This document shows, piece by piece, positions 4,068 to 45,787 of a stretch of 61,779 bases of DNA (within the stretch, counting starts at the first letter, position 1; every line of letters begins with the position of its first letter). Under the pieces are notes generated by a model. That model was given only the letters and a program-made list of their open reading frames with translations. It was not told the origin of the DNA and did not search any database. Where the stretch lies: assembly GCA_030647775.1 (NCBI GenBank), contig JAUSJC010000004.1:1-61779 (forward strand), given 5' to 3'. The DNA is from Candidatus Curtissbacteria bacterium (GTDB lineage Bacteria > Patescibacteriota > Microgenomatia > Curtissbacterales > GWA2-41-24). The position numbers and the translations under genes are program-made.

Positions 4068-5073
4068 TCTTCATCGCGCGGCGGACTTCATCTAAAGTTT
4101 GTTGGGCTTCGAGCCTTGCCCTTGCCGTTCCCTCTTTAAGAATCGTTTCGATTAGCTCCGGTTTCTTTTCAAACTCCGCGCGGATTGCCCTTATCGGTTC
4201 CAAAAACTTTTCCAAGACTTCTACCAAATATTCTTTTACTTCGACATCGCCAACAGTTCCCTCGCGATACCGCCTCTTTAAATCCTCGATCTTCTTGGGG
4301 TCACCATGCTCGGCAAACGCGTCGAGGTAAACAAATACCGGGTTGCCTTCTACCTCCCCCGGCTCATCCCCATGGACGCGTTTCGGGTCCGTAAACATTC
4401 CCATGACTTTCTTTTTAACTTCTTCTTTAGAATCGGAAAGATTGATTACATTCCCCAAACTCTTACTCATTTTTGCTTTTCCATCCGTTCCCGGCAAAGT
4501 ACCGATATCGCCAGGAATCAAAGCTTCCGGAATTGGAAAAACCTGCCTGCCGGCAGGCAGGCCTTCACCGTACAAGCGGTTAAACTCGCGGGCGATCTCC
4601 CTCGTCACTTCTATATGAGAAGCTTGGTCTTTACCGACGGGTACCAAATTAGCCTTTACCATCAAAATATCGGCGCTTTGCAAAACCGGGTAACCTAAAA
4701 GCCCGTACGAAGGCGTTTGGATCTGCGCGTCGCGCATCACATCTTTTAACGTCGGCATCTTCTCGAGCCGTGGCACGGTCACCAAATTACCCAAAATCAC
4801 GGCCAGTTCCGCCACTTCCGGTATTTGCGACTGGATATAGATCGTGCACTTTGCCGGGTCTATCCCCACCGAAAGATAATCCAAAACCAGCTGATGGATG
4901 CTATCTTTAAGTTCCCCTGTCTTTTCCGGCCGCGTTGTTAGTGTATGAAGATCCGCTATTATAAAAAAAGCTTCATACTCATCCTGCAGCCTTATTCTGT
5001 TTTTAAGCGAGCCGACGTAGTGACCTAAATGTAATCGTCCTGTGGGACGATCTCCAGTCAATATACGTTTCAT
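4048..5073 (-). CDS. trpS: Tryptophan--tRNA ligase
   Basis: HIGH-type motif (TGRLHLGHY) and KMSKS. Start placed at MKRILTGD rather than the longer ORF to 5106. Confidence 0.9.
   Translation of the reverse strand: MKRILTGDRPTGRLHLGHYVGSLKNRIRLQDEYEAFFIIADLHTLTTRPEKTGELKDSIHQLVLDYLSVGIDPAKCTIYIQSQIPEVAELAVILGNLVTVPRLEKMPTLKDVMRDAQIQTPSYGLLGYPVLQSADILMVKANLVPVGKDQASHIEVTREIAREFNRLYGEGLPAGRQVFPIPEALIPGDIGTLPGTDGKAKMSKSLGNVINLSDSKEEVKKKVMGMFTDPKRVHGDEPGEVEGNPVFVYLDAFAEHGDPKKIEDLKRRYREGTVGDVEVKEYLVEVLEKFLEPIRAIRAEFEKKPELIETILKEGTARARLEAQQTLDEVRRAMKIDYFSQ
4542..4561. repeat. GC palindrome cctgcctgccggcaggcagg inside trpS
   Basis: Perfect 20-nt palindrome encoding LPAGRQ. About 7 extra residues versus the RYG-ELFTIPEA spacing of B. 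subtilis TrpRS (from memory). Confidence 0.6.
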
Positions 5074-5200: not shown

Positions 5201-5915
5201 TTATATCTTACCCTTCCTTTCGTAGTACCTCGCAAGTAGTCCTCTTGAAAGAATTTCTATGGAATCAAAAACGGGCAGTTGGAAATCTTTTGGAAAAACC
5301 AACGGCAATTCCGTACACCCCAAAATTATTCCTTCTGCTCCTTTTTTAACAAGATTATCGGCAACATTGGCAAGACGCAGCACATCATTCCCTGATACTT
5401 CTTGCGAAATCACTTTGCGCACAACTGAATCAATTTCCATAAAGTGACCCCCTTCTTGGCACAACTGTTTCAATCCCGCACCCAGATAAAGCGCGCTGGA
5501 ACAATTTCGATTTGATAGCAGAAGGTGTCGCCAGTATCCCCACTTTTTTCAAATCTTGCTTCTTAACTTCGTCGGTAACTGCATCTATCATCGACACAAA
5601 AGGCGCTTTGGAAACAGCCTGCAAGTCCTCAATCATTATGTGAGCGGTATTACACGCTATCGCAGTGGTTGAAACATCCATGTTGTTCAAAAAATCAATT
5701 TTTTCCCTCAAGAGAAACTTCGCCCTGTGGGTATTCTTTTTAGAAGAAATAAAATCGGCAAATGGGACAGAAAAAAGAATTATCTCCGGAAAATCTTCAG
5801 TATTTTTGGCTCCAAATTCCCGTGCGGCCATAGAAACCATAACCTCCAGCATTTTTGCCGAGGCTTGCGGCCCCATACCCCCTAAAATTGCAATACTTCC
5901 TTTGTTTTTCTTCAT
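5201..5915 (-). pseudogene. Aspartate/glutamate racemase family gene split by a +1 frame change
   Basis: N-terminal ORF 5430-5915 (ILGGMGPQAS, ACNTAH) and C-terminal ORF 5201-5473 (ILGCTELPL) overlap in different frames near a G5 run (5447-5451). Confidence 0.6.
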
Positions 5916-5923
5916 ATTTTTCT

Positions 5924-5965
5924 CCCGCCTGCCAGCGCCTGATGCCGCAGGCTATGGCGGGCAGG
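5924..5965. repeat. GC palindromic element (CCCGCCTGCC...GGCGGGCAGG)
   Basis: Imperfect inverted repeat just upstream of the racemase start. Same arm sequence family as 986, 4542, 6574 and 14493. Confidence 0.5.
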
Positions 5966-5968
5966 CCA

Positions 5969-5997
5969 CAAAAAAACTCGCCGGTTAGCGAGTTTTG
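5969..5997 (-). terminator. Rho-independent terminator candidate after the tRNA cluster
   Basis: Minus strand reads aaactcgc-taaccg-gcgagttt followed by a T run. Confidence 0.45.
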
Positions 5998-6256
5998 TCT
6001 AAATTTATTTTTTAAATGCTAAGTGAACTTAGGCATAACAAAACGGCCAACCGAAGTTAGTTTGTCCTGCTATACCAATGTGCAAAAAGTCGCACGTCCA
6101 TATTTTGCAAAAACTAGCAGATGCCTTCTGCATCTGCTAAACCCTTTCACCTCAAAAGAGCATTGCTTCTTTCAATTTTTATTATATCAGCCGCAATAAT
6201 ACCCTGTCAACCAATTAAATTAGCAATTAAAATACACTGGTGCTAGTGGCTACGAT

Positions 6257-6294
6257 AAGCAGAGCTTGTGTCCTCGACTTTGTCTGCGGACTTA
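6257..6294 (-). other. Intervening sequence 3 (38 nt) in the T stem (between positions 63/64) of the interrupted tRNA
   Basis: Removing it restores ATAGG/CCTAT. The interior is related (inverted) to 6325-6357. Confidence 0.5.
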
Positions 6295-6320
6295 AGGGAT
6301 CGAACCTATGGCCTTGGCGT

Positions 6321-6557
6321 TATTTTTCGAGCTTGTCGAGAAAAACAAGCTCTCTTATATCAGCATCGTAAACATTTCTGTGCCAGCGACAGGAATCGAA
6401 CCTGTGACCTTAGCGTTATGAGTGCTACGCTCTAACCGACTGAGCTACGCTGGCTTATTAATGTCTACGATCTGATATAGGTCAGCAAAAGCTGACGTAT
6501 ACAACAGAGGGCAAAGCCCTGCTGTTATATATCAGATTCGCCGAAGACGAAGGCTCA
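6321..6557 (-). other. Intervening sequence 2 (237 nt) at anticodon-loop position 37/38, containing a whole tRNA gene
   Basis: Bounded by CTCATA| and |A-CGCCA. Contains tRNA 6381-6454 flanked by about 20-nt inverted repeats, plus a second ATATCAG-type element (6472-6535). Confidence 0.5.
6381..6454 (-). tRNA. tRNA-Met(CAU), elongator-like (Ile2/lysidine type not excluded)
   Basis: GCCAGCG TA GCTC AGTCGGTTA GAGC G TAGCA CTCATAA CGCTA AGGTC ACAGG TTCGATT CCTGT CGCTGGC A. Confidence 0.85.
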
Positions 6558-6573
6558 TATGAGTGCCACGCTC

Positions 6574-6613
6574 CCCGCCTGCAAAAGCTGATACTTTAGC
6601 ATCTGCGGGCAGG
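6574..6613 (-). other. Intervening sequence 1 (40 nt) in the D loop of the interrupted tRNA
   Basis: An imperfect GC palindrome (CCTGCCCGCAG...TGCAGGCGGG) lies between AGTTGGTTA and GAGC. Confidence 0.5.
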
Positions 6614-6666
6614 TAACCAACTGAGCTACGCAGCCGAACTTTGCATATTCTTAGAAAAGCTCTACT

Positions 6667-6735
6667 TTTCGCAGAAAGGCTTTGCCTATTCGCAGAAAAG
6701 CTTTTGCTTATTCGCAGAAAAGCTTTTGCTTATTC
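6667..6735. repeat. Tandem repeat, period 22 nt, about 3 units (ttcgcagaaaagcttttgctta)
   Basis: Each unit is a near-palindrome around AAGCTT. The array sits immediately 5' (minus strand) of the interrupted tRNA. Confidence 0.7.
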
Positions 6736-6749
6736 TATCAAATTTTGGC

Positions 6750-6910: not shown

Positions 6911-6981
6911 TAGCGGGGGCGGGAGTCGAACCCACTTCTGGAGATTATGAGCCTCCCGAGATACCGTTTCTCCACCCCGCG
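6911..6981 (-). tRNA. tRNA(CAU), initiator-like
   Basis: CGCGGGG TG GAGA AACGGTA TCTC G GGAGG CTCATAA TCTCC AGAA GTGGG TTCGACT CCCGC CCCCGCT A. It has a C1xU72 mismatch and A11:U24, but lacks the full GGG/CCC anticodon stem. Confidence 0.8.
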
Positions 6982-7564: not shown

Positions 7565-7619
7565 ATATCAGAGGAGCGCCATCGGCAGGACGAAGTCTGC
7601 CGAGGCGACCTGCTGATAT
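7565..7619. repeat. Family E element (ATATCAG AGGAGCGCC ... GGCGACCTG CTGATAT), copy 1
   Basis: 55-nt nested hairpin. Near-identical arms at 19087-19135 and 45735-45787. Confidence 0.7.
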
Positions 7620-7689: not shown

Positions 7690-8565
7690 ATGAAAAGATT
7701 AGATGAGGCTCATAAAGAATTTGTAGAACATTTAAGAGGCAAAAAGCGCGCCTCGGCAACCGTTTTGGCCTATGGTAAAGATATCCAGCAATTGGTGCAG
7801 TTTTTAAACGACCTTAAAAAGGCCGACGTTACAGAAGTTGCCGCCGAAGATATCCGCACATTTTTGGCAAAACTCGAAAAAGAAGGCTACACCCAAAAAT
7901 CAATTTCCCGGAAGCTAAATTCCACCAAAACTTTCTTCCGCTTTCTAAAAGTCCAGGAGCTCATCACCGACGACCCGGCAACACTAGTCGACCATCCAAA
8001 GTTTGACACCAAACCGCCGCGCATCTTGTCCCCTATTGAATACAGGGCACTAAGAGATGCGGCCCGCGATGACGCCAGAATCGCCGCCGTTATCGAGATT
8101 CTTTTGCAAACCGGAATCAGGATTGGCGAACTGGCCAACATTAGAACCGATGATGTTTACGAAAGTGTTGGGCAAAAAGAGGGTTCCTTATTTATAAGGT
8201 CACAAGAAAACCGTGGTGAACGAACCGTTCCTTTAAATAAAGCCGCCGAAACGGCCCTTAAAAGATATCTGGAAGTTCGCCCAAAAACTGCCAACAAGGC
8301 CCTGTTTGTCACCAAAACCGGCCGTCCGCTTCTCGTTCGAAACATCAGGACCGCTATCGACCGTTATTACAAAAGGGCCGGTATTAGCGGCGCCAAGGTT
8401 AACGACCTAAGGCACACTTGGGTCGCCCATCACCTTACTGCCGGAACATCACTGGTTTTGATTTCCAAAATCGCCGGCCACAAGCGCCTTTCCACTACGG
8501 AACGTTACTTAACACTGATCACTACTCCAAAAGGCGAGGAGAAGGTAAAGTTAGAAGAACTTTAA
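7690..8565 (+). CDS. Tyrosine recombinase (XerC/XerD family)
   Basis: N-terminal SAM-like domain. Catalytic residues in context: ...RIGEL, LRHTWVAHHL, GHKRLSTTERY. Confidence 0.85.
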   Translation: MKRLDEAHKEFVEHLRGKKRASATVLAYGKDIQQLVQFLNDLKKADVTEVAAEDIRTFLAKLEKEGYTQKSISRKLNSTKTFFRFLKVQELITDDPATLVDHPKFDTKPPRILSPIEYRALRDAARDDARIAAVIEILLQTGIRIGELANIRTDDVYESVGQKEGSLFIRSQENRGERTVPLNKAAETALKRYLEVRPKTANKALFVTKTGRPLLVRNIRTAIDRYYKRAGISGAKVNDLRHTWVAHHLTAGTSLVLISKIAGHKRLSTTERYLTLITTPKGEEKVKLEEL

Positions 8566-19038: not shown

Positions 19039-19086
19039 ATAATTCTACTGTGGATCCGGATGGAGTCGAACCATCGACAAGACCTT

Positions 19087-19135
19087 ATATCAGCAGGTCG
19101 CCTCAGCATAAATGCTGATGGCGCTCCTCTGATAT
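19087..19135. repeat. Family E element, copy 2 (inside the interrupted tRNA)
   Basis: ATATCAG AGGAGCGCC ATCAGCATTTATGCTGA GGCGACCTG CTGATAT, read on the minus strand. Confidence 0.7.
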
Positions 19136-19148
19136 ATAAGGGCAAGTG

Positions 19149-19220
19149 TGGGCCTGGTAGGTATCGAACCTACGACATCCACCTTATAAGAGTGGCGCTC
19201 TACCACTGAGCTACAGGCCC
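19149..19220 (-). tRNA. tRNA-Ile(UAU)
   Basis: GGGCCTG TA GCTC AGTGGTA GAGC G CCACT CTTATAA GGTGG ATGTC GTAGG TTCGATA CCTAC CAGGCCC A. The body is Ile-like. Confidence 0.85.
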
Positions 19221-19376
19221 GCACTTGCCACTTATTTAAGAGTCCCGTTTTACCGTTAAACTACGGATCCAATACGCCAAATTTTACCATTAATTTTTGG
19301 AAAATTATAATCTCGTTTACCCGCCATCTATATTTATTTAGAGGCGGGCCCGATGCACGATCTCCACATTCACCGA

Positions 19377-19817
19377 TTAATCTGCCGAATGAAGACCGAA
19401 TTGACCTAAAATCAAAGCACCTATAAACCAAATGACAAAAGCTATAAAAAACCCCGCGAAGAATCTCTTAAGTGGATTTAACTTGAGACTCTTCTTGGTG
19501 GCAAACAACAAACCGTTTATCAAACAATATAGGGGAACTATATAAAGCATCCCAAATCCAAAACCCATATTTCCCAAACCTTCTAAATAAAGAGGCTTCT
19601 CGCCTTTGGAACATGCACCGCTCATGCAACTGGAAATTGCGGAAAAAACAAAGAAATAAACCCATATTAAATAATCAATAACAGAAATTAGAAGAGCCCG
19701 ATTCAACCATCCTCTAATCTGTCCGAAGGAGAGCCGGAATAATACATACATCGCCCCGAAGGGAATTAGAATACCAACCATTACAAAAAAACCTACCATT
19801 TTTGAGTCAAAGACCAT
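19377..19817 (-). CDS. Hypothetical membrane protein
   Basis: 146 aa, 4 TM helices. Confidence 0.45.
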   Translation of the reverse strand: MVFDSKMVGFFVMVGILIPFGAMYVLFRLSFGQIRGWLNRALLISVIDYLIWVYFFVFSAISSCMSGACSKGEKPLYLEGLGNMGFGFGMLYIVPLYCLINGLLFATKKSLKLNPLKRFFAGFFIAFVIWFIGALILGQFGLHSAD

Positions 19818-45734: not shown

Positions 45735-45787
45735 ATATCAGAGGAGCGCCACGTTCAGTTCACATGAATGAGGCGACCTGCTGATAT
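45735..45787. repeat. Family E element, copy 3
   Basis: atatcagaggagcgcc acgttcagttcacatgaatga ggcgacctgctgatat. Confidence 0.7.

Follow-up and report, generated by a model that had tools for sequence, protein, structure and literature searches.

Palindromic and miniature inverted-repeat transposable elements (MITEs) of bacteria, such as the Rickettsia palindromic elements and the Neisseria Correia elements, are short, non-coding, hairpin-forming and dispersed. Other mobile DNA enters tRNA genes in particular: integrative elements, prophages and genomic islands integrate at the anticodon or T loop, where the gene is made whole again by a copy of its 3' part, and group I introns are found in the anticodon loops of cyanobacterial tRNA-Leu and tRNA-fMet and of Azoarcus tRNA-Ile. 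Multi-intron, split and even tri-split tRNAs are known from archaea (Nanoarchaeum, Caldivirga, Thermoproteales; PMC10714607, PMC4090602), and in bacteria of the Candidate Phyla Radiation (CPR) the rRNA genes carry group I and group II introns, often with homing endonucleases, which are removed from the functional rRNA (PMC9297842, PMC10714607). Here we describe a tRNA-Met(CAU) gene broken into four pieces, with a second, complete tRNA-Met(CAU) gene inside its anticodon loop, on a 61,779-nt stretch of DNA (the window) from a Candidatus Curtissbacteria bacterium (contig JAUSJC010000004.1 of assembly GCA_030647775.1). We consider it likely that the ancestral elongator gene survives here as the outer gene, inactivated by insertions, that the inner tRNA has taken over from it, and that such events are recurrent in the lineage. 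A literature search turned up no description, in CPR bacteria, of tRNA genes that are nested or interrupted.

Anatomy of the broken gene

The outer gene and everything inserted in it are read on the minus strand. Piece 1 (6614..6635) comprises positions 1 to about 21, that is the acceptor 5' strand, the D-stem 5' strand and the D loop; piece 2 (6558..6573) the D-stem 3' strand, the anticodon-stem 5' strand and the loop through A37; piece 3 (6295..6320) A38, the anticodon-stem 3' strand, the variable loop, the T-stem 5' strand, the T loop and positions 61-63; and piece 4 (6247..6256) positions 64-73. Joined by hand, they give the 74-nt sequence GGCTGCGTAGCTCAGTTGGTTAGAGCGTGGCACTCATAACGCCAAGGCCATAGGTTCGATCCCTATCGTAGCCA, which ARAGORN calls as tRNA-Met(cat). 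The acceptor stem has 7 bp, one of them G.U, the D stem has 4 bp and the T stem 5, and the anticodon stem consists of 4 pairs plus A31.C39. Run on the DNA with introns of 0-400 nt allowed, ARAGORN called neither this outer gene nor the outer tRNA-Ile gene described below. Three intervening sequences (IVSs) separate the pieces: IVS1 (6574..6613), a 40-nt GC-rich hairpin in the D loop with ends CCTGCCCGC...GCAGGCGGG; IVS2 (6321..6557), a composite 237-nt insertion in the anticodon loop, between positions 37 and 38, with ATA at both junctions; and IVS3 (6257..6294), 38 nt long, which interrupts the T stem between positions 63 and 64 (TAAGTCCGCAG...GAGGACACAAGCTCTGCTT). Junction placement is ambiguous by 3 nt at 37/38 (the repeated ATA), by 1 nt at 63/64 (T) and not at all in the D loop.

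An earlier note on this DNA had proposed the four segments and their elongator-Met-like cloverleaf, the sizes and sites of the three IVSs, an intact tRNA(CAU) gene on the same strand within the 237-nt piece, and inverted repeats around that gene with the termini of an element called family E (a dispersed hairpin family, below). ARAGORN bears out the exact coordinates and stem pairings of the outer gene, the IVSs have the lengths and positions foreseen, the inner gene is recognized by ARAGORN and Rfam alike, and the repeats are present, with ends TATCAG...CTGATA.

By its protein matches the window belongs to the CPR/Microgenomates, near Candidatus Curtissbacteria. Two of its proteins had no exact match on record, and relatives were reached through protein homologues of genes in the window. 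One of them, a groundwater contig from ENA (L082) whose TrpRS is 91% identical in amino acids to that of the window by global alignment (89% by BLASTP), has an uninterrupted tRNA gene in the same place and with the same flanks, matching the joined pieces at 72 of 74 positions. Piece 1 is identical to L082 8369-8390; the two differences are U47 to C, in piece 3, and C68 to T, in piece 4, which makes the pair G5.U68. Neither IVS1 nor IVS3 is found in L082, and an independent assembly (L083) agrees with the uninterrupted form of the gene. Such a match to an uninterrupted tRNA at the orthologous site puts the four-piece gene far beyond chance. The neighbourhood tells where it stands: the order on the minus strand is DivIC (7513-7166), the initiator tRNA-fMet, a terminator, an extended -10 promoter, an array of 22-nt units, the broken gene, a sigma-70 promoter with its leader (6210-6114), and the genes for an Asp/Glu racemase, TrpRS and FtsH. 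Relatives have the same gene order and keep a pair of initiator and elongator tRNA-Met genes, which places the outer gene at the site of the resident elongator.

The inner tRNA-Met(CAU) (6381..6454, minus strand) is intact (ARAGORN; Rfam tRNA, 72.1 bits) and is presumed to be the working elongator gene. It is contained in a 120-nt hairpin unit (6358..6477) with ends TATCAGA...TGCTGATA, the arms of which, ATCGTAGACATT and AATGTTTACGAT, make a 12-bp helix round the tRNA. A counterpart in a relative, L100 (GCA_040900145.1), has the same inner tRNA but for one nucleotide in 74, and the helix round it shows one compensatory change, C-G to T-A, between the two; inner tRNAs score 72-75 bits. The rest of IVS2 is made of a 5' mini-hairpin (TGAGCCTTCGTCTTCGGCGAATCTGA, 6532..6557), common to L100, and two insertions specific to the window: a nested 52-nt double hairpin (6480..6531), which the copy in L100 and in its independent counterpart L101 does not have, and a 35-nt hairpin at the 3' end (6321..6355), likewise not in L100. 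The minimum free energy (MFE) fold of the 400-nt region is very stable (z = -8.6), with the inner cloverleaf on a stem of about 20 bp and the outer acceptor stem closed. As to transcription, the extended -10 element TGATAGAAT (6732..6740, minus strand), kept upstream of the tRNA in L081 (the closest genome, below), L082 and L100, is the probable promoter of the ancestral elongator gene, and likely now drives the inner tRNA; no convincing promoter of the inner tRNA's own was seen.

The inserts have kin elsewhere in the DNA. Both 9-nt ends of IVS1 recur in a second element in the window (CCTGCCCGC...GCAGGCGGG; 5924..5965, minus strand), a coincidence expected 0 times by chance, and L082 has a different hairpin at that place. 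The ends of the 120-nt tRNA unit, TATCAGA...TGCTGATA, are those of the dispersed family E, hairpins of about 50 nt found at 7566-7618, 19088-19134 (minus strand) and 45736-45786 and also in L100, L101 and L088; no solo copy of the tRNA-carrying unit turned up in the sequences searched. As in MITEs, the elements have terminal inverted repeats or hairpins, no coding capacity and a length of 35-120 nt; there are empty orthologous sites, in L082 and L083 for tRNA-Met and in L103 for tRNA-Ile, and short duplications at the junctions. IVS3 we do not call a MITE, because it has no copies beyond this locus. Its sequence type (TARGNCCGCAG..GAGGAC..CAAG..CTT, two direct half-repeats round a short hairpin) is seen only beside 3' remnants of tRNA-Met: at 6257-6294 in the window, at 6564-6603 in L081, and at 1188-1275 in L002, where there are two tandem copies. 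We considered that it might mark where an integrated element, since decayed, once ended, or that proteins might bind it upstream of the strong promoter at 6210-6181.

Protein genes have also received palindromes. A perfect 22-nt GC palindrome, CCTGCCTGCCGGCAGGCAGG, lies in frame at 4540-4561 in the TrpRS gene (minus strand, 5073-4048), giving the protein 7 residues (..GLPAGRQVF..) not present in the orthologues of 91% and 89% identity, and peptides like those that such palindromes encode are seen in the 5'-3' exonuclease gene at 516-1538 (996-1008; the ASEAKQS..PRNDK stretch).

The locus in relatives and a second nest in tRNA-Ile

In the closest genome, L081 (GCA_041643115.1; Xer 96% and TrpRS 93% amino acid identity), a different intact tRNA-Met begins at the old 5' end, followed after 9 nt by a stump of the outer gene: a 5' part, ATTCGATCCCT (also written TTCGATCCCT), a 40-nt IVS3-like element, and ATCGCAGCCA. 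The T-stem insertion is at the identical 63/64 site; of the old gene, the 5' two-thirds have been lost. L100 and L101, the latter an independent Logan assembly, present the succession piece 1 - IVS1 - piece 2 - IVS2, with the same inner tRNA; the IVS1 copy of L100, 36 nt long and with the same ends, is at the same site in the opposite orientation. What follows this composite is a non-cognate 3' half, of the tRNA-Met kind that is intact in L088. Only 2 of the 5 anticodon-stem pairs remain (counted from the sequence), and decay has reached the T arm and the 3' strand of the acceptor. Being truncated in L081 and chimeric and decayed in L100 and L101, the outer gene appears dispensable.

The locus has been reshuffled in other ways. 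It is a mosaic: the window is nearer to L082 upstream and nearer to L081 downstream. The block of initiator and elongator tRNA genes is inverted relative to DivIC in L088 (3022-3410), L100 (3766-4366) and L106 (1-140), and a tRNA-Met 3' stump, ATCACTGACAGCCACTAG, remains at the old position in L088. The tRNA-Met locus is a rearrangement hotspot.

A second nest, absent from the earlier note, is found in the window itself, again on the minus strand. The 5' part (19237..19270) and 3' part (19051..19087) of an outer but otherwise perfect tRNA-Ile(UAU), which has an uninterrupted orthologue at 6466-6539 in L103, join to form a 71-nt tRNA that ARAGORN calls as tRNA-Ile(tat). The 149-nt interruption, in the anticodon loop, consists of the family-E element at 19088-19134 and an intact inner tRNA-Ile(UAU) (19149..19220; 74.6 bits), quite unlike the outer one and flanked by the 8-bp helix GGCAAGTG / CACTTGCC. 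Yet another tRNA-Ile(UAU), the third, is nested in L104 and L105, with flanks TCTTGCTCAT / ATGAGCAAGA, and splits a second type of outer tRNA-Ile at 37/38; this outer type is intact in L102 and has a C4.A69 mismatch in the L104/L105 nest, which shares its contig with an uninterrupted tRNA-Met. In L106 there is one more tRNA-Met; behind it, and starting in the anticodon loop, comes the 3' half of a tRNA-Met of the L088 type. Beside the tRNA-Ile locus of L102-L105, the space between a gene for an ATPase of the type IV secretion system kind and the tRNA-Ile is taken by an RDD-domain gene of about 300-340 aa; in the window the corresponding stretch, 19377-19817, contains only a 146-aa open reading frame (ORF).

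The total is at least five nests (three Met, two Ile) in six assemblies, and in all five the inner tRNA has the anticodon and the orientation of the outer one and is situated in its anticodon loop. Repeats of 3-4 nt are present at the junctions in four of the five, ATA for Met, CTTA for the Ile nest of the window and TATA for that of L104, L106 offering its 3' junction only; these are candidate target duplications, too short to be told from microhomology with certainty. A survey of 106 sources (1.53 Mb) with hidden Markov models of tRNA halves, which is too insensitive for the short Met pieces, found nests only in Curtissbacteria-like loci. Among close relatives, uninterrupted, nested, truncated and inverted states coexist.

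Probable replacement of the resident gene and competing explanations

These states can be understood if a non-coding hairpin unit of about 120-150 nt, carrying a complete but promoter-less tRNA-Met(CAU), entered the A/T-rich anticodon loop of the resident gene in a transposition-like manner, in the orientation of its host and with duplication of ATA. Small hairpin elements, GC-rich or other, would have entered the D loop and the T stem as well, and two more hairpins would have nested later inside the 237-nt piece. The old promoter would then give rise to a long structured precursor from which RNase P and RNase Z would free the inner tRNA; the enclosing stem of about 20 bp might aid its release, perhaps through RNase III acting at the stem, and the outer pieces would be discarded as leader and trailer remnants, their decay only begun. 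The same course of events would be recurrent, single-copy tRNA-Met and tRNA-Ile(UAU) genes being split in the anticodon loop by elements bearing a tRNA of the same anticodon and the resident gene being replaced, not lost.

We read the outer gene as a young pseudogene because neither a group I ribozyme nor a bulge-helix-bulge (BHB) motif was found in it. This is the first of two readings that the earlier note had offered, in which a MITE with a tRNA aboard inserted into the anticodon loop of a paralogous tRNA, other elements came after it, and the outer gene turned into a pseudogene only recently; it has gained from the uninterrupted gene in L082 and L083, the sharing of the IVS1 ends, the family-E ends of the tRNA unit and the two nested hairpins. 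Of the three findings that the note had named as refuting its other reading, a functional split or multi-intron tRNA, two were made: an uninterrupted gene in relatives (L082 and L083) and an intact elongator-type tRNA-Met, the inner gene itself.

Several observations weigh against replacement of an inactivated gene by a transposing unit. The outer exons bear no disabling substitution, their only changes being U47 to C and C68 to T, which leaves a G.U pair, and they are 97% identical to L082 compared with 69-82% for nearby intergenic DNA. If IVS3 was inherited from a common ancestor with L081, this conservation could mean continued selection; recent insertion or lateral exchange at a mosaic locus fits it equally well, and because the locus is a recombination mosaic, slow evolution of the exons is not decisive for function. 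The labelling of the inner tRNA as elongator tRNA-Met, as opposed to a lysidine-type tRNA-Ile2, comes solely from its 62/74 match to the outer gene and its likeness to tRNA-Met of E. coli. IVS3 is not dispersed: no IVS3-like copy was found outside the tRNA-Met locus in any of the DNA fetched. In 20 further ORFs of the window Pfam recognized nothing but housekeeping genes, and neither a transposase nor a reverse transcriptase, an RtcB or an EndA among them. With no transposase, and with tRNA-carrying units of three kinds whose ends are unrelated, a single transposition system is not established. Finally, our view of this genome extends over 62 kb, and any other tRNA-Met genes, TilS, RtcB or EndA would lie beyond it. 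Further afield, scans of viral contigs gave no match to the inner tRNA-Met or the inner tRNA-Ile, hence no sign of a phage origin, and a metagenome scan for T-arm insertions of the outer tRNA (GGTTCGATCCCT N25-55 ATCGYAGCCA) returned only chance matches in unrelated DNA.

The same end state could have been reached by capture and recombination: a break in the anticodon loop repaired with foreign DNA that chanced to bear the same tRNA, or the passage of a finished nest from lineage to lineage by homologous recombination, for which the conserved tRNA halves would act as arms, selection then keeping only the insertions that restore the tRNA. In favour of this are the lack of relationship between the ends of the three kinds of unit, the mosaic structure of the locus and the inverted tRNA blocks of L088, L100 and L106, with their 3' stumps. 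Moreover, the Met composites of the window and L100 are 83-100% identical, though L100 is more distant than L081 and L082, which lack the composite. The uninterrupted initiator tRNA-fMet just upstream (6911..6981, minus strand; C1.A72) has the same CTCATAA loop as the elongator, yet no interruption of it occurs in the five genomes examined, as would be expected if selection filters the insertions. The 3-4-nt duplications, the inverted-repeat flanks and the ends of a dispersed family are nevertheless those of transposition, and for five nests out of five to show the same orientation in the anticodon loop, random capture would need strong selection. On balance we think this origin unlikely.

The second reading of the earlier note, a functional split or multi-intron bacterial tRNA, has fared much worse. 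On this view the whole locus would be transcribed, RNase P and RNase Z would liberate the inner tRNA while the outer halves stay joined through the flank helix, the D-loop and T-stem hairpins would be excised, and a ligase such as RtcB would rebuild the 74-nt outer tRNA-Met. Some observations speak for it: the precursor fold described above closes the outer acceptor stem and places the inner tRNA on a stem of about 20 bp, which one compensatory change preserves; the outer exons still make a perfect cloverleaf and are better conserved than nearby intergenic DNA; and an IVS3-like insert is at the same 63/64 site in L081. In split tRNAs of the Nanoarchaeum type, halves that are transcribed separately come together through a complementary leader/trailer helix, the splice substrate; here the helix, of 12-20 bp, encloses the inner tRNA, and the pieces are colinear, on one strand and behind one conserved promoter. 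By inspection and MFE folding, no dedicated BHB search having been made, the junctions show no BHB-like geometry: the pairing of IVS1 extends from end to end, with no bulges, loop positions 32-35 (CUCA) find no partner in the 3' end of IVS2 (..CUCGAAAAAUA), and no helix is conserved between IVS3 and its counterpart in L081. Nor is there a group I or group II signature, Rfam introns and ribozymes being absent from the whole window at the gathering threshold or at E<=5, and neither EndA nor RtcB is among the 20 scanned ORFs or the annotated neighbours in relatives, 62 kb of genome being visible. The IVSs, for their part, are members of insertion families also present in intergenic DNA and coding genes. 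Together with the uninterrupted orthologue in L082 and L083, the truncated outer gene of L081, the chimeric and decayed ones of L100 and L101, and an intact elongator-type tRNA-Met on the inside, these results make splicing of the outer gene very improbable.

That the assembly joined reads of coexisting strains at repeated tRNA sequence is hardly credible, metagenomic source, identical stretches of 16-18 nt between tRNA paralogues and the frequent ending of relatives' contigs inside these tRNAs (L001, L083, L106) notwithstanding: all the pieces are there in linear order and meet the inserts cleanly, a chimera would not produce hairpin inserts of 40 and 38 nt, and misassembly is made unlikely by the recurrence of related nests in independent assemblies, the Met composite in L100 (NCBI) and L101 (Logan), the Ile nest in two from ENA (L104, L105).

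Returning to replacement by tRNA-carrying units, the recurrent nesting of like in like has the look of a way of replacing tRNA genes that is so far undescribed, and suggests that small tRNA-carrying elements have replaced tRNA genes repeatedly. A bolder version, to which we give somewhat less than even credence, is that tiny selfish elements with a promoter-less tRNA gene home into the cognate anticodon loop in the same orientation, destroy the resident gene, borrow the promoter of their host and become indispensable, an addiction by gene replacement that would drive rapid turnover of tRNA-Met and tRNA-Ile in Curtissbacteria. Were insertion targeted in this way, it would constitute a new selfish strategy as well as a new route for horizontal replacement of tRNA genes; even if it is merely a matter of selection acting on frequent insertions, an essential RNA gene is seen to survive disruption. 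In their interruptions at 37/38, in the D loop and in the T stem and in their adjacent helix, the nests mimic the multi-intron and split tRNAs of archaea, and so bear on the debate over the origin of tRNA introns and splits; the selfish-element version, if true, would supply a living model for interruptions at or near 37/38 with adjacent helices. On the practical side, that ARAGORN missed both outer genes with its intron search on calls for caution in the annotation of CPR tRNAs.

Surroundings of the locus and described systems

Between the extended -10 promoter and the outer tRNA is a tandem array of a 22-nt hairpin unit (6639..6736, minus strand; 4.6 copies), of which L082 has about two units and L081 none. 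Downstream, at 6114-6210, comes a perfect TTGACA-18-TATAAT promoter and, behind it, a conserved leader (AATGCTCTTTTGAGGTGAAAGGG...) with a terminal terminator hairpin. The same promoter and leader are found in L002, L081, L082, L088 and L100, upstream of varied tryptophan-related genes, for racemase and TrpRS in the window and for TrpBA in L081, and the leader may be a Trp-responsive attenuator. The only Rfam match near the locus is a sub-threshold one to Trp_leader, at 5968-6055. The Asp/Glu racemase gene (5201-5915) consists of two overlapping ORFs (161 and 90 aa), as against a single gene of 237 aa in L082, and is probably frameshifted or a pseudogene. On the other side, a gene for an Xer-like recombinase (7690-8565) keeps its position in every relative, those with an uninterrupted tRNA among them. 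The GC skew is negative in every 2-kb bin of the window (-0.04 to -0.29), its cumulative value falling throughout without a turning point, consistent with the strand composition disparity reported for a Microgenomates genome (PMC7143001).

How, then, does the locus compare with the systems set out at the start? The inserts resemble MITE-like elements in their polymorphism of presence and absence, in their nesting within one another and in their in-frame insertion in protein genes, here the TrpRS palindrome; they differ in that one unit bears a complete tRNA and is inside a tRNA gene of the same anticodon, and in that IVS3 is not dispersed. With the integrative elements that target tRNA genes they share a tRNA loop as target and incoming DNA that preserves tRNA function, but here neither integrase nor ORF comes with it, the tRNA is supplied whole, the repeated sequence is of 3-4 nt, and both old halves remain. 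Group I introns in tRNA genes occupy the same site in the anticodon loop and are of similar size, about 200-250 nt, whereas here no Rfam ribozyme is found and the insert is a mosaic of hairpins with a tRNA. The likeness to archaeal multi-intron and split tRNAs includes interruptions at 37/38 and in the D and T arms, a helix beside the split, and inserts that look like mobile DNA; the differences are the bacterial host, the lack of any BHB found, the uninterrupted gene in relatives, the decay of outer genes and the inner tRNA of the same anticodon. The rRNA introns of CPR bacteria are also mobile insertions in stable-RNA genes, and of the same host group; the genes they interrupt still yield functional rRNA, whereas the tRNA-Met gene interrupted here appears to have been abandoned and replaced.

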